A stretch of DNA of 64,000 nucleotides from Schmidtea polychroa (taxonomy: Eukaryota): positions 84,568,001 through 84,632,000 of the forward strand of contig CM097888.1 of the NCBI GenBank assembly GCA_044892525.1, written 5' to 3'. The translations under genes and the position numbers were made by a program. Positions 19,340-35,018 of the stretch are shown here, in pieces. How positions within the stretch are numbered: position 1 is the stretch's first letter; every line of letters starts with the position of its first letter. The notes under the pieces were generated by a model that was not told the origin of the DNA, did no database searches, and saw only the letters and a program-made list of their open reading frames with translations.

Positions 19340-19394
<55 letters not shown>

Positions 19395-19652
19395 TATTTG
19401 CATTCTCGCCAAAATTGAAATTCACTAATTCTAATGCAGTTCAGTTAAAAACTTTGTAAGTACGATTGAAAATTGTTTTAATATTTGCATTCTCGCCAAA
19501 ATTGAAATTCACTAATTCTAATTCAGTTCAGTTAAAAACTTTGTAAGTACGATTGAAAATTGTTTTAATATTTGCATTCTCGCCAAAATTGAAATTCACT
19601 AATTCTAATTCAGTTCAGTTAAAAACTTTGTAAGTGCGATTGAAAATTGTGT
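19340..19652. repeat. (TA)n tract followed by three tandem 87-bp units inside the hAT 5' region
   Basis: Unit AATATTTGCATTCTCGCCAAAATTG... starts at 19393, 19480 and 19567. Confidence 0.95.
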
Positions 19653-19783
19653 TTTCTTATTTTAGTATTATTTTTTGCTAAAAAAAAACTTATTTATATT
19701 TTTAGAAGACAATTATAATTGATTTCAAAAGGTAATTCATTAACAATTTTAATGATAAATAAATAATATGTTTCAACTTTAGA

Positions 19784-21696: not shown

Positions 21697-21813
21697 AAAA
21701 CATGTCAGCATATTATAGAAATGAATCTATATATAATTTTTAAAAGCATGTATTTTCATTTAATAAAAATAATTTGTATTGGCACGCAGTCAAAAAAAGG
21801 TTCGCCATCCCTG

Positions 21814-23249
21814 GTCTTGAGCCTCTTAATTTCTATGGCATTCCCGGTATGTCATGGGCCTCAGCGCTTATGACATTAACGGAACCTATTGAACTTTTGC
21901 AGGACATGGAAATGTTTAATTTCTATGAAGGAGGGATACGGGGTGGGTTAACATTTGTTAACAAACATTATGTTGCTAGTTCTGAAGACACTAAACTCTT
22001 GTACATAGATATTAATAACTTGTATGGTTGGGCCTTAAGCCAAAATCTGCCTTATGCTGACTTTGTATGGGTGTATGATGATTTGGATATTATACTTTCT
22101 GAATGTGTGAATGATGATATTGATAACCTTCCATATGGGTATACTATGGAAGTTGATATCGATATACCCGAATGCTTGCATGACTTCCTTAATGACTTTC
22201 TTATTGCTGCGGAAAAGATGTGTCCACCGAACTCCAAAGTCGAGAAGCTGATGCTCACGCATTGGCCAAAGAAGAACTATGTTCTTCATTGGAGACTTCT
22301 TAAACTTTATCTTTCACTCAATGTGACGGTGGTTAAAATTTATAGAGCAGTTAAATTCACGCAAGCACCCATTTTTAAATCGTACATTGATAAAAACACA
22401 ACATTAAGAGCACAATCCACCAGTGAGTTATATAGAGATTTGTTTAAGCTTTATAACAACAGCTTATATGGGAAATCCGTTGAGAACTTAAAGAAAAGAA
22501 TGAATTTGAGGCTATGCAATTCAGCTGAAAAGATGATTGTATATGCCTCAAAGCCAACTTTCAGAAAATCTATCAAAATTGCTGATGATCTGATTGTGGC
22601 TCATCTGGATAAAGATTCTATATGTTTAGACAGGCCTAGCTATATTGGTCAATCAGTACTAGATTTGTCTAAACTAAGAATGTATCAACTACAATATGTG
22701 GAATTGGCCAAGTACAGGTCTAAATTTAATTGTGATATAAATATCGTTGCCGGTGACACTGACTCCTTTTTCTTAGAGATAAAGCATTGTAAGCTTGACA
22801 CTCTTTTGCCGGCAATGATTCGTGATAATCTTTTAGATACTAGCAACTATGACCCAACACATCCCTTATACTCTAGAAACCTTGATTCTGTGATAGGGAA
22901 GTTTAAGGATGAGAGTAAAGGTTTAGGGTATAAGGAATGGGTTTTCTTAAGACCTAAGTGTTATAGTTTGTTAGGGGATAAAGATCATTTAAAAGCAAAG
23001 GGAGTTCAGCTTGGTAATACTGAGATATGGCATCAGTCGTATTTAGACTGCTACAACAACAGCGTAGTATATACGGTGCCACAAACGAGAATAGGAACAC
23101 GCAACAACCAGCTCTTTACTTTTAAAAATAATAAAATAGCCTTGTCGAACAACGATGACAAGCGCCTTTGGGTGGGTCCTAATACCAGTCTCGCATATGA
23201 ACATTATTTAGGAGTCGATGTTCCAGATGTTGATCAAGTAATTTCATAA
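21814..23249 (+). pseudogene. Protein-primed family B DNA polymerase (Polinton/adintovirus type), 5'-truncated
   Basis: GIRGG, YIDINNLYGWAL, KLYNNSLYGKS, AGDTDS, GKFKDE, LRPKCYS and KAKGV motifs. It begins exactly at the hAT right TIR; the exonuclease half is missing. Confidence 0.92.
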
Positions 23250-23458
23250 ATTCGTCCACTTTTTAGCGGAATGAGTCCAGATTTCAATGATGATGACAAT
23301 GAAGCCAATGATGCCAATGATATTGATATAGATGACGTATTGTTATCGAATTGATCTGTGATTCAATATATCTTTTAATGTCTTAATTTATTATGAAAAC
23401 TAATAATAATTTTGTAAATCTTAATAATAATAATAATAATGAAAATAATAATAATAAT

Positions 23459-24473
23459 TGTTTCGACCAGTCAGAGGGGGATTGCCTCTGACTGGCATTT
23501 ATTTGGTTTTTGTCTATCGCGTCTGTGTGCGCGGTCTGGTTAGACCGAATATTGTTGGTGTGCGCACACAGACGCGAGCAATGGATTGAATTGGTGGTGC
23601 AGTAAATTGTTAATTTTTATTGATTTTTTTTATGTATTGTTGGTAGAAATTCGAGAATTGGTTTTTGTTTTAAAAAAGGGAAATTCGAGAAGTTTTGTTT
23701 CGTTTGGTTTCAAGAAAATTTGGTGGTTTTTTAAAATTTTGAATCGTTTAAAAATTGGATGAAGTTCCTTGTTAAAATGGCTTCAAGTGTCAAATGTGAT
23801 CCTTCTTATTTCGATGAAACCAGTGAATTCATTGAAAATGGCAGAAAATTTAGTGGAGTATTGGTTCACTATCTTGCTGGAATCTCAAGTAGTGGAATTA
23901 TTTTGACGGCTTATTTAATGAAACATTTTAAAGTTGGTCCAAACGATGCGATTGAGACAATTAAGGAAAAGTCATTTAATATGTCCAAATGATGGATTCA
24001 TGAAACAATTAAAGATATATTTCAACATGAATTGCAGTGATGAAATCAACAAATGCGCAAATACAGTTTCTCAAGCTCAATTTAAGTTATCAGCATCTTC
24101 AAAAGATTTAGTTCAATTCAAATGTAGAAAGTGTCGATTTTTATTATTCGACAATTCAAGTGTTGTTGAGCACAGTAAAATGAAAGCTTCGAAAGCAATA
24201 AATGAAAGCACAATTTGCAATGAGGAAATACTTATCGAAGCTCTTCCTTGGATTGATAGCAGCAATGCAGACGGGGAAATGAAAATGACAGTGTTAAAGA
24301 ATAAAATTTTAATGATTTATTTGGATCTTATTCATGGTAGCAGAGCGTGGTTCCGGCTAGCCAGCCGGAACAAGGTAATAGATGATTGTATAATGTATTT
24401 TTTGTATTTACGTGATTATTTTGTGAATTATTTTATGAATTATAATATGTGTTATATTTTTATTGTTGAAACA
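23459..24473 (+). repeat. Putative 5' LTR (TGTTTC...GAAACA) including an embedded DUSP12 fragment
   Basis: Terminal inverted hexamer TGTTTC/GAAACA. Only the first about 320 bp are confirmed by the 3' copy, and no canonical TGG PBS follows 24473. Confidence 0.55.
23782..24285 (+). pseudogene. DUSP12: Intronless dual-specificity phosphatase 12 (YVH1-like) fragment
   Basis: [22 protein letters not shown] (HCxAGxSRS with C>Y and R>S), [22 protein letters not shown]...VVEH zinc-binding domain. One frameshift; C-terminus truncated. Confidence 0.85.
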
Positions 24474-24519
24474 TTTCCCCTAGGGCCTGCCCTCCCTAAC
24501 CCCATTAGAGGTGGATTGG

Positions 24520-24970
24520 CGCGGGTATTTGTCAAAATAATAACAGGGAAGACAATTACTCTCGAAGTTGAATCTAGTGACACGATAGAAAATGTTAAAG
24601 CGAAAATACAAGATAAAGAGGGTAGTCCACCTGACCAGCAACGATTAATTTGCGCGGGAAAACCATTAGAAGATGAGCGAACATTATCTGATTATAATAT
24701 TCAAAAGGAGTCTAATTTGCGTTTAGTTTTGCGATTGAGGGGTGGAATGCAAATATTCGTGAAGACACTGACAGGAAAAACAATAACTTTGGAAGTAGAA
24801 TCAAGTGATACTATTGAGAATGTAAAGGCTAAAATTCAAGAAAAAGAAGGGATACCCCCATGGCGACAAAGACTTAATTTTGCCGGGAAAGTATTAAAAG
24901 ATGGCCTAACGTTGTTAGATTATAACGTTAGGAAAGAAGCCACGGTACATCTGGTTTTGGGTCTGGCAGG
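24520..24970 (+). CDS. Two tandem ubiquitin units, in frame with downstream BEL Gag
   Basis: Unit 1: [33 protein letters not shown]...LVLRLRGG. Unit 2: [11 protein letters not shown]...HLVLGLAG. The ORF continues without a stop into Gag. Confidence 0.95.
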
Positions 24971-26860
24971 GATAAGTCCAGTATCAGATGCGGAGTTCGA
25001 GGCAGGTTACAAGAGACAAACCGGGTGGAAGATTTCGTTAGGGTGTCTACGTAACCGGGCCTTAGGAGATGGATCGGACCCTGGGGAAGATCAAAGGAGA
25101 ATGGAGGCTTACGAAGATAACTATGAGGAAGTGATAAACGAATTGGAGGAGCTGAGGAATAATGCTCGGGAGTTAGGGCGGGAGAAAGAAGAAAAGGAAA
25201 TTGAGGCAGATCTGAAACGGTTAGAAGCGGATTTCAGCAGAATCGGTGATCTGGTCCTCACGCAGAAGGAAGAGAGTTTTAGAGTGGAGTCGCGGAAGGG
25301 CACAGAAAAATCATTTAGGAGCGAAGAGCCCAATGAGAAACAGAAGTGCATAATGGGTTTGAAACCCTTGCAGCTGCCGATCTTTAATGGAAAGGTAATA
25401 GAATATCCTGGATGGAGGGCAATTGTGAGAGCCTGCATCGAGGACACGGATGAGCCGAGTACTTGTACCTGAGACAGTACTTGGAAGGGAAGCCGCTGCA
25501 ATTAATTGCCTATATTGGATATGGCTCGCAGGCTTTCGAGGCGGCGATAAAATTACTTGATGAAAGGAAAGGGGGGACCAGAAAGATCCTATTACATGAT
25601 TCTGGATGCGGTGCAGAGGTTCTTTCCAGTGCGGCTGAACGTACTGGAGGACCTAGAGCGGTTTGAAGAGCTGCTGGGAAACCTCATCCTGAATTTCAAG
25701 GATCAGAAGAGGGAAGGCGAGTTGAACAACGGAATGTTGTATCACCAACTGCTGAAGAAGCTTCCAGAGACCATGCTGATTCAGTGGTCACGCCATTGTG
25801 ATTCGGGGAGAGAGGGAAATGTGCAAACGCTAGCCGAGTGGATCAAAACGGAAGCTAATAGGCATCGGCAAGCAATGAGCATTCTGTTTGGAGAAGGGCG
25901 GGCAAAAGGTAGAACTGTCGCCCCAACAACTAACTTCGGAAATGCGAATAGGGGCACGAAGTTTACGGATAGTAGGCGCAAGATAGAGGTTAGCAGTGCT
26001 CGAAAAAAGGAACCAATTTGTGTGAAATGTGGTTCAGAACATTATTTAAATCAATGCTCAGAGTTCCTAAAGCTGACTGTTAAGGAACGAAATGAGTTTG
26101 TGACCAAGAAGCGGCTTTGTTACAATTGTCTTACAACAGCTCACATGGTTAGAGAATGCGAAAAACCGAGCTTTTGTAAGGACAGAGATTGTACTCGAAA
26201 GCATCACAATTTGCTCCATGGCTCAGAGAACAAAGTTGATGGAGATCAAGAGCCGAGCAATGAGAACACATCAATGATGACGGTTCAAGATACACAGAGG
26301 AAGAAGATGTATGTTCCTTTACGAACGATTACAGCAAAGTTGATTAATAAAGGAAAGGAGATCAAGATCAACGCCTTGCTAGACGACGCAAGCAATGTTA
26401 GCTATATTAGCGATTGGGCGGCGCAAGAACTGGAGTTGGGAGGACAGTGGCAAAGCACTCCAGTTGGCGTGATTGGTGGACAATCACAAATGTTGGAAAC
26501 GAAGCCAGTAACGGTATTATTGGCAAGTAACAATAACAATTTAAAGGTAAATTTGAACGTCCTGGTGGTAAAAAAGATCACTGGAGACCTGGGAATGTGT
26601 AACTGGAGGAAGTTATCGACGAAATGGAAGCATCTGCGATATATAAACTTCCCGGTTATGAATACAAGGACGCAGATTGATGTATTGATTGGTTCTGATT
26701 ACCCATATCTACATCGATCTATTCGCGAAGTAACAGGAGCAAAGCATGAACCAATTGCAAGGTTGACGCCCCTCGGATGGACATGTCTTGGTAGGATTGC
26801 AAGGAATCAAGCTCCAAGATGTTCGCATTTGGCTCAGAGTTATTTTGCGGTAACGGAAAT
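24971..26860 (+). pseudogene. BEL/Pao Gag-protease, two frameshifts at about 25460 and 25575
   Basis: [87 protein letters not shown] and RLTPLGW. Confidence 0.9.
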
Positions 26861-27580
26861 GTTAAACGTCGGAGAAATGATTATTCATGATGTAGATAAT
26901 TCTGAAGAAATGGATTATATTAAAGAATGGGATGAAAATGATGAAACACATGAAAACAAAAATGCTAGCGAAGATGGAGATAGTGAAAGCAATGAATGTG
27001 ATAATTTACAATCTACCGATATTATAAATCAAGATGAAATAGAGCAAAATCGAGTCAATGAGAACGAGAATCAGTATTCTGAATTTGTAAAAAATAATAC
27101 TGAACTATTAGACAACGATTTTGATAAAGGAGACCAAGTTACAGCAGATGAATTAGAAAATATTGTCAAAAGTCACAATCAAGAAGAAAATTTTGAAAGT
27201 AAATATGATGAAACTGAAGTAGATGTGTCAGAAAAGAATGAAAATTATAATAGTCATGTAGGCACAGAGGTTGTCGACATTAATGTTATCGAAAGACCGA
27301 ATTCTTTGGTAGAAGATAATTTTCAAAACATGGAAGACGTAGTTAATGTTCAAACGGATTCTGCTTCTTCAGAAAATCATTTAGAAACTGATCGAATTAT
27401 GCCAGATTCTGAGAGCAATGACAGTGATCTGAGAGTCGATATTGGTAAAGATCATACGTCCGACACAGCTAAAGATTCTGAACAAAATACATTCACTCAA
27501 CCAACGTCTGCTTTAGATGATATCATTGCAGACTATTTACCTGGTTCCCCTTCATTAAATGAAATGCAACAGGGAAAAGT
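26860..27580 (+). other. Acidic, AT-rich in-frame ORF segment replacing RT/RNase H/integrase
   Basis: About 240 D/E/N/S-rich codons in frame with Gag-PR and a compositional shift. It is followed by a short integrase-tail-like remnant (QDGCVR...KFPLK). Confidence 0.7.
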
Positions 27581-28141
27581 GGGGACTATTGAATTGGCGA
27601 AAAATGAAGGAAGAAGAATGGAGATATTGCACCTAAGCAGAATGAAAAGTGGCAGGGGCTTGGTCGAGTATGGCGATGGTGGGGGGAGAATCCACCATGA
27701 TGTATCCAGAAAGGTGCGTGGTGCGGCGGCCTATACCATAGCAAGATGGGTGTGTGAGGGATATTGGAGAGATGCGAACAGAAAGTTTCCCCTGAAGTAA
27801 TTGGGTGGTTGATCCGCTAGAAGGGATCAAGGAGGGGGGAAATGTTTCGACCAGTCAGAGGGGGATTGCCTCTGACTGGCATTTATTTGGCTTTTGTCTA
27901 TCGCGTCTGTGTGCGCGGTCTGGTTAGACCGAATATTGTTTGTGTGCGCACACAGACGCGAGCAATGGATTGAATTGGTGGTGCGGTAAATTGTTAATTT
28001 TTATTGATTTTTTTATGTATTGTTGGTAGAAATTCGAGAATTGGTTTTTGTTTTAAAAAAGGGAAATTCGAGAAGTTTTGTTTCGTTTGGTTTCAAGAAA
28101 ATTTGGTGGTTTTTTAAAAATTTGAATCGTTTAAAAATTGG

Positions 28142-28734
28142 ATGAAGTTCCTTGTTAAAATGGCGTTTATTTCATGGATGAAATATCATTTTAGTGATGA
28201 TTCTGATAGCAAAATTGAGAATTGTGCCAATCTTGAAGATTTTGAGATGTTTTTAAGAAAGATTCCATCAAATATTAATTACCCTTGTGTATTGTCAAAT
28301 AATTGGACAGCAAATTGTGAGTTTGCGCTCCTCGTGGTCAAATGTAATCTTCTACAATCTTCTGTAGAAATGCTTTCTAATACAAAATTGTTTTGGAATT
28401 TATTAGACGATAATAAAATTCAATATATTGCCTTATCTGTGGTTGATGTTGACGGATCTATGATTTACAAGTTACGCAATATTGCGAGTCTCAATCAATC
28501 AGGAGTTCAATTAGCAAAGGAAACGAGATATTTATGCATTGTGGCTACAGGAAGAATTTCTTTTACTATAACGAGCGATGTGATAAAATCAAACTTAGAC
28601 TTTATGAAATCGGATCATGACTTAAGTGATGAGGTTTATGTAAATTATGATTTCGAACAGATCATTCAATGCTGTGAAATTTTGTTGCCACATAGAGCCG
28701 ACTCCATCGAGTCTATTTCGAATAAAATTGTTAT
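28142..28734 (+). CDS. Unidentified intronless ORF starting at the LTR-internal ATG, open into the gap
   Basis: About 190 stop-free codons in AT-rich DNA. The first 8 codons (MKFLVKMA) are LTR-derived. No family was recognised. Confidence 0.45.
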
Positions 28735-29049
28735 NNNNNNNNNNNNNNNNNNNNNNNNNNNNNNNNNNNNNNNNNNNNNNNNNNNNNNNNNNNNNNNNNN
28801 NNNNNNNNNNNNNNNNNNNNNNNNNNNNNNNNNNNNNNNNNNNNNNNNNNNNNNNNNNNNNNNNNNNNNNNNNNNNNNNNNNNNNNNNNNNNNNNNNNNN
28901 NNNNNNNNNNNNNNNNNNNNNNNNNNNNNNNNNNNNNNNNNNNNNNNNNNNNNNNNNNNNNNNNNNNNNNNNNNNNNNNNNNNNNNNNNNNNNNNNNNNN
29001 NNNNNNNNNNNNNNNNNNNNNNNNNNNNNNNNNNNNNNNNNNNNNNNNN
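28735..29049. other. Assembly gap
   Basis: N run. Confidence 1.
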
Positions 29050-30600
29050 ATAATACCCTTGCGACATGTTGAATATGACCAGTACCTTTGTGAACAATAC
29101 CCATAGGGGGACAAAATATTTTGTCGGATAGACTAGGATATATATAATAATAATCCCTGTGTTTCAAAGACCTTTATTTTCAAATAATAATAATATCTCT
29201 TGTCGGGAACTCTCAAATTTCACATTAAAAAAAAATGAACTTTACATTAAAAAATTTGACCTTGAAAAAATTTTTAAAAATTTCCCCTAGAGTGGGGGTG
29301 GGGGTGGGGGTATGTGGTCCAGCAGAGTCCTGGTCTAGCGGTGCCCTATCCATCTACTCCTATGGGTACTGCTCACACTCAACAGGTTGCAAGGGTACTA
29401 GTCATGCTTATTATTATTGTTATACAATACGATGTTACTTAGACATTTGAAGGTTCAACCATGGTTAAAATTTCTACATTTTGAAAACGCTATTTGATTG
29501 GCTACCTCAATTTTTATAAATGTAAAAACAAAAGTAATTTAGTTATTAAGAAATTTATTTATTACTGATTATTTCTACAAGTAAAATTGTTGAATATGAA
29601 TGTCTATATATATATATATATATATATGTGTCAATTTATATATGTCATTTATAGCCAGGAAATCCTACTAGAAATAAGGAAAAATTAAGTCCAACCTACT
29701 CCGAAGATAAGCGTTCATTGAAATTTTTTAACAACACAGTGGAAGATTTCATAAATAATCATGATACTTACACTGATAAGGAAATCAAAAATATTTTAAT
29801 TGTTACAGACATCCTTCCATTGAAATAATTTAGTATCTAAATTCATGTAGTAAGAGCCCACTAAAAGATCAAAATTCACTAAAATCAATATTTTCTACAA
29901 ATACTTCACCACATTTACCATCAAATACCTAACTAGAGATGAAATATTGATCATAATTCTTCATCGACTCAGCCAATTATATAGCAATTATAACGTGGAT
30001 TATCTTTCAAAATCACGAATGTCAGTATATTTTACAATAATTTTCAAGTAGATTTCAAATATATCATCATGATAAAATTAGCTGGTTTCAACTTTAGATT
30101 TTCAATATTTAAAAGTTCATCAATATTTTTAGAAAATATATGAAAAAATTATTTTGTCAAATTCAATATCATTACAAACTCATCATAAAAATTAAATAAT
30201 AATCACTTGATTATTGTAAAAACTCTAATTATTAACCTAACTGTCATTAAAAATAATTTTTATTTAAAATTAAATTTAAAAACAAGTCAATAAAATATAG
30301 CAAATTATCAAGAAATTAATTAAAATTGTCTTAGAATTAACACTAAAACCTTAAATTTTTAAATATTCTTTCAATTACTCACAAAAGGGTTAGTAATAAT
30401 GTTAGTAAAATCCCGCTAACTCTAAAAATTTACCAATAAATTTAATGCTAATTAATAAAATAAAATTTGCCTAAATAAAATCATTAAAACACACCAGTAC
30501 CTTTACGACCAGTACCCTTACGAGAAGTACCAATTGTGAACAGTACCAATAGAGGGAGAAAATATCTTGTCGGATAAACTCAGAATATATATAATAAAAC
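29050..30600. repeat. Dispersed repeat family (CAGTACCTTTGTGAG-like 15-mers plus palindrome), possibly Helitron/Helentron-like ends
   Basis: Copies at 29050-29150, 29358-29405 (inverted) and 30495-30600, with further copies at 37478-37560 and 38137-38240. Perfect palindrome GACAAAATATTTTGTC in the first copy. Confidence 0.6.
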
Positions 30601-31755: not shown

Positions 31756-32769
31756 TTAGCCATCTACTTTACGAAACTGTAATGTCAAATGAGTTTTCGA
31801 ATCTTTCGGAAAGTTTATAAGTTTTCCACTATCATCACGAATATTTATTTCTATATTGTTTATACATGAGATTGAAATTGGTAAATACATGGGATTATCT
31901 ATATTTATATTGACAACTTCGTCGTGTTCATATCTTCCAATCCACACCGATTTCAAAAGAGGAACACTGGAATCACCAACAATTATGGGTTCGATAATGT
32001 TAGTATATATGAACATTTGTTGATGATGTTCTAGTATTCTTGGTTTGCGTATACCAGTCGATTTTTCTCGATATTTTTGCTTATCTAATCCAAGTGAATT
32101 TGCCAAATTTTTATCAAATGTAACTTCGCAAATATCCTCATTCAAACTGAAGATAAACTTCAAATCTTTCACAATTTCCAAATTTTTAAATATGTGTGAA
32201 CAATTGTACTTTAAATATTTAAGTAATACATCAAGTTTATCAATATATAATTCGTCAGCAAAGGTGAATGATTCTTCAACTTCATTATTATATGACATTG
32301 ATATTTTGATTTCTTCTTTCATTACACTGTTGGCTTCAAATAGATCAAAACGTAATAAGTATTCTGTTTCCATAACATCATTTTTCAGCTTATTGCAACC
32401 CATTCGTTTGGCATCTTCAATAGTTTCGAATGTTTTGTAAATGGTTTAAAATCACAACTGATATTTAATCCATCCTTGTAAAACATATAGCATTGCGGAT
32501 CTAATATTTGATTCGGAATATGATATGTTTTATGGTAATTACTGATAACAAAGATACCACTACATGTTTTCAGAACATTCCTTTGGAAATCAATCTTACA
32601 TTGACTATAAAATGGGAATGTGTTGTACACGAATGTAAAATCTTGCAATGCAACTTCCCAGTCACCAATTAATGAAATCGGATTCTGGATTGACCATGAA
32701 TTAGCTGGCTTGATTATCTGGATGAATTAATGGGCAGCTGTTGCTTGGTAAAATAGTATAAAAATTCAC
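31756..32769 (-). pseudogene. Polinton minor capsid (penton, PX-like) gene
   Basis: N-terminus FYTILPSNS...GDWEVALQDF. C-terminus IYTNIIEPIIVGDSSVPLL...YLPI...IEINIRDDSG...TLQFRK. Contains stops and frameshifts. Confidence 0.8.
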
Positions 32770-33824
32770 TTCCTAGGTCCTTTTCTGATATCCATGATGG
32801 GTTTTGATATCCATGCCACTTGACATAGTATTGTTTATCCGTGCTGACCATTTTAGTTTTCAATATCTTTTGAATTCTAAATACTTTTGGAGGAGGAATA
32901 ACTTGTAATTCTTGCTCATAAAATTTTCCATGTATAATATTATTATCATTGTCTTTGATGACATACATTACAGGACTCTGGCATATATTTATTTTTGAAA
33001 TTACAAAGACTTCATCACTCCAATTTGTATCGAAATTTTTAATAAATGGTGATGCACTAATTTTACTAATTCTAACGTGGTCACCTACTTTATATTTAGG
33101 TTTAGTAATTTTTACAGGTCTTGTAGAACTCACTGATTTTTTTGAAATGATATCAACCGGTCTTAATCCATTAAGTCCTCGATGTGATGAATGATTATAA
33201 CTGGTTATTATTTTTGGTAAAACCAATACCCATTTTTTATTACCTTGATGCACAAATAATTTCTTTAATCTATCTCTCAATGTTCAGTTAAATCTTTCAA
33301 CGTGGGCAGCTTTGTATTGAGAATGTACCGAGTAATGGTTTATTTCCAATTTATTGAGGATTTGCTTGACTTTACTGTTGTAGAATTCTTTACCTATAAT
33401 AATATTAATATAAATAGTAATAATAATAATAATACTTAAATCCGTTTGCAAGTTATTAGGATATCCTTTTTTAAATAAATTATTAACAGCTTTGGACATT
33501 TCATCTGTAGATTTTGCCTTGACTGGTATTGCTCAGGCAAACCGACTGAATACATCAATACACGTTAAAATATATTTATACCCATTGTTAATTTTTGAAT
33601 ACGGTATCATCTCTATCAAATCCATTTGCCCATAAATCCTTTATTCCATATGTTTTATATGTTCTTGTTGGGAATCGTTTCTGCATTGGTTTGTTCAAAC
33701 TGTACGCAAGCTGGTCTGATAACCACTTCTGGGTTTCCTTTTTCGAATTCCGAACTCTTTTCTTTAATTTTGCGACTTCACCGAAACCGGCTTCGCCTTC
33801 GGGGTTCGTCCAAATCTTCTTCAT
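32760..33824 (-). pseudogene. Polinton retroviral-like integrase with C-terminal chromodomain; 42-bp GT-AG insert at 33394-33435
   Basis: YKYILTCIDVFSR, QTD-x-GKEF, KAAHVERFN, YNHSSHR, KYKVGDHVRISK, GKFYEQELQ and YYVKWHGY. Confidence 0.9.
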
Positions 33825-33885
33825 TACAACAAGAAGATTTAAAATTAAATTTAATGTCGGGTAATAAAGGATTTGCACCCATTGT

Positions 33886-34380
33886 TTATGCTCGACTTCC
33901 TATTATTCCACCTAATAATGATATTGCTAAAGGTATCAATGCACCAATAAATCTCTCTTGTTGTTTATATATAATTTTCCTCATTTGTTGACGATTTTTA
34001 TTATTTACTCATGATAGCAAAGGTTTCCTATGTTTACTCAATAATTGCTTTTTAGATTTACTGATTTTAGTCTTGCCTTTGACTATTTTAAGTATAATAT
34101 CGAGTAAATGATCGACAACATAATTTGGAAATGATTGCAAAATACTGTTTCTTTTCATACTTGGTGCCTTTAACAATGTATTAAAAAGCGGGAAACTCCG
34201 ATGACTTTTAACAACTTTTACTTTCTTAGTGGTTTTACTTCTAGGTTTAGGTTTAGGATTTTTCGAAATAAGATTCATTGCAGGAAACTTTTCTGTAGTA
34301 AGTTCTTTAGATGGAGTATAAGTAGTTGTTGGTGGAACTTTTGGTTGTTTTTTATTTGATATCCTTGTTTTTGAAAACAT
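33886..34380 (-). pseudogene. Small basic Polinton-associated protein with hydrophobic C-terminal tail; one internal TGA
   Basis: Reads through KPLLS*VNNK...KQQERFIGALIPLAISLLGGIIGSRA. Its position between ATPase and integrase is typical of such elements. Confidence 0.55.
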
Positions 34381-34389
34381 TTTTTAACT

Positions 34390-35018
34390 TTAATTTGAAC
34401 TTTTTTTATAAACCGTGGCACCTTTTGAGTTGAAAATATCTGTTTTTACTCGTAAATCATCAGGACATTGTTGTGTGAAATCAAGAAATATATATCCATG
34501 CGGTATTTTCGTAACATCTTGAAATGCATTGATAAGAAAATTACGATTAGGGTATGCTTGTCGTCCAAGAAAATCAATGACAGTTGCATTTCTAGGATTC
34601 TTGAAAATAACTAAATATTGTACATTTAAATTACGTGTTCGATGTGCACCACCTTGATGAAATAGATTTTGTGTTATGAAAATAACTGTTACACCAACAG
34701 GTCTGCTGATTTTTGTGAATAAATTATTAAAATCCTTTTCTTTATTGGCTTCTTGATACAAATCATCAATAATAATCACATCATCTTTCTTCAAACAACT
34801 TGGCCAGTTTTTATCAAAACCCTTTACTATTTTCATGTTTTTCAACTGACAGAAACTTGATTGCGTCAATCCATATTCTTCGTCGGCGCCCCTATGCCAA
34901 TAAATATTGTTGAATTTTGTTTTGAACAAATTTGATTTTAATAATTTACAAACAAATAATGGTTTCCGCTACCACTCGGACCAACGATTTGGTATACTGC
35001 GTCATTTCGTAATTCCAT
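34390..35018 (-). pseudogene. Polinton packaging ATPase (A32/FtsK-like)
   Basis: Walker A GPSGSG(K) disrupted by a 1-nt frameshift; Walker B VIIIDD; IFITQNLF, YLVIFKNPR and HGYIFLDF. Confidence 0.9.

Follow-up and report, generated by a model that had tools for sequence, protein, structure and literature searches.

Metazoan retrotransposons with long terminal repeats (LTRs) can acquire host sequences when reverse transcriptase switches template onto a cellular mRNA, a route of LTR-mediated retroposition described by Tan et al. (2016; PMC5131818), who also cite the maize element Bs1. In cytopathic pestiviruses, a cellular ubiquitin insert acts as a processing signal (PMC8310069). Here we describe a locus in which both themes meet, within a 64,000-nucleotide (nt) stretch of the Schmidtea polychroa genome (assembly GCA_044892525.1, contig CM097888.1, positions 84,568,001 to 84,632,000; hereafter referred to as the window, in whose coordinates all positions are given). 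The element at 23459–28734 is a non-autonomous BEL/Pao derivative that encodes ubiquitin–ubiquitin–Gag–protease, with a third piece of likely host origin in the place of pol (Table 1). We propose, with a probability of roughly 0.62, that the reading frame of its LTR runs into ubiquitin–Gag, that the front of this frame is a disposable slot refilled with pieces of host mRNA, and that its two LTRs are recombined variants. The anatomy of the element, its cargos, the open frame, a layout shared by relatives and a single branch in a quick tree are directly observed.

The LTR frame does not stop in its cargo but crosses the primer-binding site (PBS) into ubiquitin–Gag, a continuity overlooked in an earlier note made from the letters of this stretch and one that would account for the cargos being in frame. 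The 76 codons at 24276–24503, which extend from where the DUSP12-like cargo ends across the LTR end, the PBS and the leader up to ubiquitin, are free of stops in the Gag frame, as were 7 of 5,000 shuffles; the remaining two frames are interrupted by 12 and 7 stops. Among 80 metagenome loci that we fetched, 11 have the PBS motif. The three of these with ubiquitin (L001, L002 and L036) are open through the PBS for 539, at least 135 and at least 85 codons, an openness reached by 3, 0 and 0 of 2,000 shuffles, respectively; none of the eight without ubiquitin is open through it. A GT–AG pair at 24375–24483 (109 nt) was rejected as an intron, as it would break the frame and is absent from the contig joints listed.

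The same layout extends to the closest relatives of the element. Its Gag–protease region has 113 BEL/Pao-type homologues at E ≤ 1e-10, nearly all of which carry DUF1759 and/or Peptidase_A17. In the best 6 of the 113, ubiquitin (four proteins) or a ubiquitin-type di-glycine end (six) lies just ahead of Gag, and in none of the other 107; the di-glycine directly precedes the downstream protein in all six of these relatives and in L001, L002 and L036. In a quick, unstarred tree of Gag–protease, for which ubiquitin was unused, the ten ubiquitin rows and one 5′-truncated locus form one branch (SH-aLRT 92). The tree comprises 62 rows, for which at least 330 aligned residues were required of proteins and 250 of loci, includes every third non-ubiquitin protein and leaves out L036. 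A separate check of viral contigs confirmed 0 of 198 candidates.

The architecture is clearest in L001, in which ubiquitin–Gag–Pol is intact. A polypurine tract (PPT) at 299, a TG at 311 and the PBS at 2128 enclose a 1,817-nt PPT–PBS interval (311–2127), and a single open reading frame (ORF) of 2,547 amino acids reads, in order, through a GMF N terminus (E = 2e-4), a TRAF RING with zinc fingers (TRAF6-like, E = 2e-15), a CKAP5 TOG piece (E = 6e-10), the PBS, ubiquitin and Gag–Pol. The frame opens at the GMF N terminus, whose Met lies at LTR nt 232, and the three cargos, all in sense and in frame, extend over 1.4 kb. By the positions of the PPT and the PBS, these cargos lie in the LTR, which the contig contains once. 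At the protein level, P0002 begins with a DnaJA1 piece ahead of a GSRAWF motif (E = 6e-5) and P0006 carries an HSP90 piece ahead of ubiquitin (E = 5e-8); for the N terminus of P0004, which looks SENP8-like by eye, a check did not confirm the resemblance. The view of the earlier note that host mRNAs are captured repeatedly via the LTR is thus borne out by sense, in-frame captures throughout the ubiquitin–Gag branch. In L002, the frame upstream of the PBS (1–407) is built of a 10-residue tandem repeat. The sequence GSRLW of P0005 was rejected as a PBS peptide, since P0115 shows that it arises when ubiquitin is read out of frame. Upstream of ubiquitin, a GGGCCC palindrome (read as YGP) occurs at L001:2393, L002:820 and L036:784, YGP is also present in P0002 and P0115, and the window has a counterpart palindrome, CCCTAGGG, at 24477–24490; these palindromes are possibly RNA dimerisation or packaging signals.

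In the window, the ATG at 23759 opens the peptide MKFLVKMA and continues into a fragment of a DSPc domain (Pfam E = 3.8e-11). Compared with the full-length DUSP12-like protein P0001, this fragment is in sense orientation and in frame, and it is 84% and 67% identical in the parts before and after a frameshift near 23978. About 17 codons are missing near 24039, and the piece lacks both the N terminus and the active-site residues, so that the catalytic motif is lost. The earlier assignment to DUSP12 is supported by Pfam and P0001; the intronless state also claimed is seen solely as colinearity with the protein and with contigs. These contigs, from 4 of 19 listed runs (X1, X5, X7 and X11), were compared with 23782–28734. 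The RNA nature of the runs is an automatic guess, depth is not a copy number, and X11 bins without cover were excluded. Of 9,015 pieces, 28 joints and 510 loose ends, the comparison lists 32, 15 and 24, respectively. By contig depth, DUSP12 cargo is the common LTR type: its binned depth in X1 is two to four times that of gag, as expected because it is LTR sequence, and its depth in X5 is 5026 at 23890 against a background of about 43, an excess of about a hundred times.

This abundance, together with the recurrence of regulators among the cargos (TRAF RING, DnaJ, HSP90 and phosphatase), would fit a reading in which the cargos are kept for function: cleavage at ubiquitin would set them free to act on signalling and proteostasis as decoys or regulators. 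Such retention is compatible with the anatomy; we nevertheless consider it improbable, given that the domains are truncated and differ in every lineage, that the DUSP12 piece of the window has neither its N terminus nor its active-site residues, and that abundant mRNAs are expected captures anyway.

The 3′ LTR carries a different cargo. The ATG at 28142 begins a frame of 197 codons that reaches the assembly gap with no stop, and each of the other five frames contains 10–25 stops. This cargo 2 (28175–28733) corresponds without gaps to nt 3206–3764 of a 4,726-nt X7 contig, with 18 differences in 559 positions. It has no match in Pfam or the PDB, no usable match in the Atlas, none in 527 longer candidates (a search outside which near-length proteins fell) and none in 1.84 billion representatives; a single-sequence structure model reaches a pLDDT of 36.6. 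The third, acidic coding piece (695 nt) follows the protease (Pfam E = 0.031) at the point where the tblastn similarity to BEL/Pao stops (26861) and X1 and X5 contigs depart from the window (26866). Read from a 30-nt loose end, it is in sense orientation and in frame, and it matches the interior of 2,198- and 2,315-nt contigs (X7 and X11), with 22 differences over about 650 positions; no family match was found for it, Pfam included. The cargos have 32% GC and a GC3 of 0.20–0.30, compared with 46% and 0.48 for gag–protease. Because both lie inside longer contigs of putative RNA origin, cargo 2 is likely to be a piece of a long host mRNA and the acidic piece a host transcript fragment, and their composition points the same way. 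In X1, cargo 2 has a depth of 5400–6100, compared with 140–270 for the weakest X1 contigs listed, which hints at multiplication of this variant. In X5 it is at background depth, whereas the acidic cargo is deep in both runs, and the cargo-2 variant is perhaps population-specific. The segment 27565–27842, considered as an integrase remnant, was rejected, as it yielded chance-level matches alone.

The two LTR copies (23459–23781 and 27843–28164) are 98.5% identical across 323 aligned columns, with differences in five, and diverge past ...AAAATGGC. Several elements of the earlier description therefore hold, namely near-identity over about 320 bp followed by divergence, entry of the 3′ copy into a different stop-free ORF (put at about 190 codons), and cargos in frame with the LTR ATG in both copies. 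Its placement of the LTR end at GAAACA (24473) does not hold, as an 18-nt PBS-type motif, which we take to be of the initiator-Met tRNA type, starts at 24335, directly 3′ of the CA at 24333–34. The 5′ LTR thus spans 23459–24334, and the DUSP12 piece lies inside it. A near-perfect hairpin at 24350–24371 overlaps the end of the PBS. The target-site duplication of BEL/Pao elements is 5 bp; ATAAT sits before 23459 and again after the gap, but the target is (TAA)n and the gap conceals the element end. TAA repeats precede the LTR start in 27 X1 contigs, and (TAA)n microsatellites are apparently the insertion target of the element family.

We consider the mismatched LTR pair to be probably real. Intermolecular strand transfer or a later exchange can bring two LTR variants together, and the pair seen here would have arisen by such transfer between two co-packaged variants or by exchange after insertion. 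A serious, if unlikely, alternative accepts the same biology and attributes the mismatch to a short-read assembly join that entered via the shared 323-nt head and left into the cargo-2 LTR of another copy. Consistent with such a join, the head is highly repetitive, the two LTRs of an element are normally identical when it inserts, cargo 2 is followed by a gap, the window contains three small gaps, no contig among those listed bridges the junction and the target duplication is unreadable. Against this, the heads differ at 5 of 323 columns and hence do not represent one collapsed copy, and cargo 2 (18/559) and the acidic piece (22/about 650) are equally diverged from the contigs of putative RNA origin, although both observations are compatible with a join. 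Very unlikely, in our view, is a deletion that cut the 3′ LTR short at nt 323 and left it next to a resident host exon, in which case cargo 2 would be the host gene itself. The background depth of cargo 2 in X5 would suit this, as would the fact that its parental gene is not among the sequences compared; however, cargo 2 is in frame with the LTR ATG, is 3% diverged from two of the runs and is deep in X1, and the flanks, a Polinton-like polymerase and a MITE-like repeat, show no further exons.

The structure of the LTR itself bears on how cargos are acquired. GC content is 52% in nt 1–120 and 26% in nt 121–300. The strong hairpins of the head (z −6.3) were matched in 0 of 200 shuffles, Rfam returned no match for the head, and a 28-mer from it had no match among the metagenome contigs. 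The GC contrast and the opening of the L001 frame at the GMF N terminus weakly suggest that the start-codon segment is a captured host 5′ end and not native LTR. The earlier note had suggested that the LTR may be a promoter-plus-ATG cassette with a recurrent capture point at about nt 320. Both cargos do start at most 22 nt from the divergence point and at most 45 nt from the ATG, and the first cargo of L001 likewise starts at its ATG. However, DUSP12 similarity begins at about 23803 (LTR nt 345) and the contig match of cargo 2 at 28175 (LTR nt 333), 10–22 nt past the divergence point at nt 323; LTR variants also part company near nt 120 (28 X1 contigs); the acidic cargo, like the three cargos spread along 1.4 kb of L001, points to capture at many places; and the comparison rests on n = 2, with an ATG segment that looks host-derived. 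Hence a dedicated point is decidedly improbable, and what survives of the cassette is that the LTR supplies the start codon. The 8-mer around the LTR ATG, TGGATGAA (28139–28146), recurs 36 nt downstream as the start of cargo 2 (28175–28182), a post hoc observation.

Our preferred reading, a disposable slot ahead of ubiquitin–Gag, suggests the following mechanism. Transcription would start upstream of the ATG at 23759, placing the cargo within a long R region that ends near the AATAAA at 24300, and translation would begin in the LTR and yield a cargo–leader–ubiquitin–Gag product. By analogy with pestiviruses, host deubiquitinases are predicted to cut after the di-glycine and free Gag, so that the sequence ahead of ubiquitin would be disposable but would have to remain open, and any sense, in-frame mRNA piece would be tolerated. 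New pieces would be supplied by template switching of reverse transcriptase (RT) onto co-packaged mRNA, and a capture would survive only if it lay downstream of the ATG, in sense orientation and in frame. Breakpoints just 3′ of the ATG would then reflect the silencing of Gag by captures upstream of it, and not a dedicated site. Extended to the whole BEL/Pao branch, the LTR would be the translated front of Gag–Pol, an exon-shuffling cassette insulated by ubiquitin, with which autonomous elements capture, chain, swap and mass-amplify pieces of host mRNA in both LTRs and in solo LTRs at no replication cost, and the present locus would be a swap caught in the act; we regard this broader proposal as an even bet.

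Several observations weigh against these interpretations. The window sequence departs from nearly all contig depth at numerous positions, among them the frameshift and the point where the second ubiquitin ends, and the copy therefore looks decayed: DUSP12 and gag are frameshifted, the phosphatase motif is gone and, while the first ubiquitin ends in LRGG, the di-glycine of the second is lost. Among the contigs and joints listed, none spans 28164 or ties cargo 2 to the element, and in X5 cargo 2 lies at background depth (43), where the amplified variant is not visible. The 107 proteins counted as lacking ubiquitin may be annotated from downstream starts, and the branch support comes from the quick, unstarred tree. 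L001, L002 and L036 are not independent, L001 and L002 being sisters, and the eight control loci represent about three families, with broken gag frames in L007, L009 and L010. Upstream of the PBS, L002 is repetitive and L036 has an open frame with no recognisable host gene; moreover, a PBS-like peptide was not found in P0003, P0006, P0007 or P0115.

Table 1 Features of the element and its immediate flanks in window coordinates.
Feature	Position	Strand	Basis
(TAA)n run, apparent insertion target at the 5′ flank	23400..23458	+	Sequence; 27 X1 contigs with TAA repeats ahead of the LTR start
5′ LTR, 876 nt, TG...CA, coding from nt 301	23459..24334	+	TG matching 27843; PBS at 24335
GC-rich native LTR head, two strong hairpins	23459..23578	+	52% GC; z −6.3; highest contig depth
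AT-rich leader, in-frame ATGs at 23759 and 23777	23579..23802	+	26% GC; one X7 contig departs after 23805
DUSP12-like phosphatase mRNA fragment, broken in this copy	23803..24274	+	Matches P0001 residues 62–235; X11 contig departs from the window at 24274
LTR tail, AATAAA at 24300, open in the Gag frame	24275..24334	+	Sequence
PBS, 18 nt, read as GSRAWF in the Gag frame	24335..24352	+	Identical 18-mer in L001, L002 and L036
Leader, stop-free in the Gag frame	24353..24503	+	Stop counts, shuffles
Two ubiquitin units in frame with Gag	24504..24974	+	Pfam ubiquitin E = 7e-54, two stretches
BEL/Pao Gag (three Cys-His knuckles) and aspartic protease	24975..26866	+	Homologues; frame broken near 25472–25551
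Third cargo, acidic coding piece in place of RT/RNase H/integrase	26870..27564	+	In frame with the protease; 32% GC
Element 3′ region, ending in the PPT at 27829–27842	27565..27842	+	Sequence
3′ LTR, shared head, ATG at 28142	27843..28164	+	Alignment to the 5′ LTR
Cargo 2, stop-free coding piece	28175..28734	+	Inside a 4,726-nt X7 contig; X11 contig match starts at 28175
Assembly gap, 315 N, hiding the end of the 3′ LTR	28735..29049		Sequence

Directly after the gap, a MITE-like element (29051–29400) has a 36-nt inverted repeat of 83% identity, and its interior recurs at 30526, 37467 and 38166. Remnants that by eye resemble a Polinton-like polymerase, an integrase-chromodomain and an ATPase flank the element at 21744–23354 (+) and 31756–34968 (−); for these, Pfam returned only Chromo (E = 1e-4). 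Farther upstream, long inverted repeats (5180–6776 and 10971–12513; 85–96%) surround gag-like zinc-knuckle ORFs at 7321–9488, and three tandem 87-nt copies (19393–19653; 97–100%) precede a transposase that is hAT-like by eye.

The element shares with BEL/Pao retrotransposons (Belpaoviridae), as outlined in PMC8742986 and PMC3118150, its LTRs, an 18-nt PBS, a PPT before the 3′ LTR, a Gag with capsid and nucleocapsid homology and three knuckles, a Pao-type protease and relatives with a full pol. It differs in its coding LTR and leader, in the ubiquitin ahead of Gag and in an LTR length that reaches 1.8 kb in L001. The pol order protease–RT–RNase H–integrase is present in P0002–P0004, and the window copy retains the protease only; the two matching LTRs of 0.2–1.2 kb in the ICTV family profile (PMC8742986) contrast with a pair that matches over 323 nt, comprising an 876-nt 5′ LTR and a 3′ LTR whose end lies in the gap; and the profile gives a PBS for tRNA-Arg or tRNA-Gly, unlike the motif of presumed initiator-Met type seen here. 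Because of these three departures, we file the window copy as a BEL/Pao deletion derivative and not among the full members. The same PBS motif occurs in 11 of 80 BEL loci, which indicates that this profile is narrower than the family. The word ‘ubiquitin’ does not occur in the main text of the BEL/Pao survey PMC3118150.

As in the retrocopies described in PMC5131818, partial host mRNAs are joined here to an LTR element in sense and mostly in frame, several genes are chained, and the product is copied further as a non-autonomous element. The acidic cargo, a likely host piece that takes the place of pol, fits this pattern exactly. The two LTR cargos do not, because those retrocopies replace part of the internal ORFs, whereas these cargos lie in the LTR and form the N terminus of Gag(–Pol), an arrangement also present in the intact, autonomous relative L001. 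Host-gene capture normally cripples LTR elements by replacing gag or pol; here, capture would be free. We did not find this architecture described in the literature, with Repbase, subscription journals and the supplements of PMC3118150 and PMC5131818 lying outside the search. The present locus contributes the mismatched LTR pair, the third internal cargo and the cross-species evidence from intact elements. If our reading is correct, every insertion and every solo LTR would spread a unit of promoter, ATG and host fragment, which would offer a testable way for chimeric genes, and small RNAs directed against host genes, to arise, and false multi-copy ‘paralogues’ of genes such as DUSP12 and ubiquitin are predicted in the annotations of such genomes.

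Coding LTRs and a frame across the PBS have precedents: in yeast Ty1, the Gag frame has its start within the LTR and includes the PBS, and the ORFs MMTV sag and HIV nef lie in the LTR. These are fixed element genes, not exchangeable host pieces, and have no ubiquitin spacer. The planarian elements Burro and GYPSM1 (PMC6431247) are likewise LTR elements whose polyprotein includes host-like domains; they are, however, gypsy elements of 30 kb with stable internal domains, and the available text describes neither LTR cargo nor a ubiquitin spacer for them. A functional parallel comes from the pestiviruses, in which, according to PMC8310069, host hydrolases cleave a captured ubiquitin in the polyprotein and thereby generate the authentic N terminus of the next protein. 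Pestiviruses are RNA viruses in which the insert appears in sporadic strains, whereas here ubiquitin is a lineage-wide feature at the Gag N terminus and its cleavage is predicted; if this holds, the pestivirus ubiquitin trick would extend to a lineage of retrotransposons.

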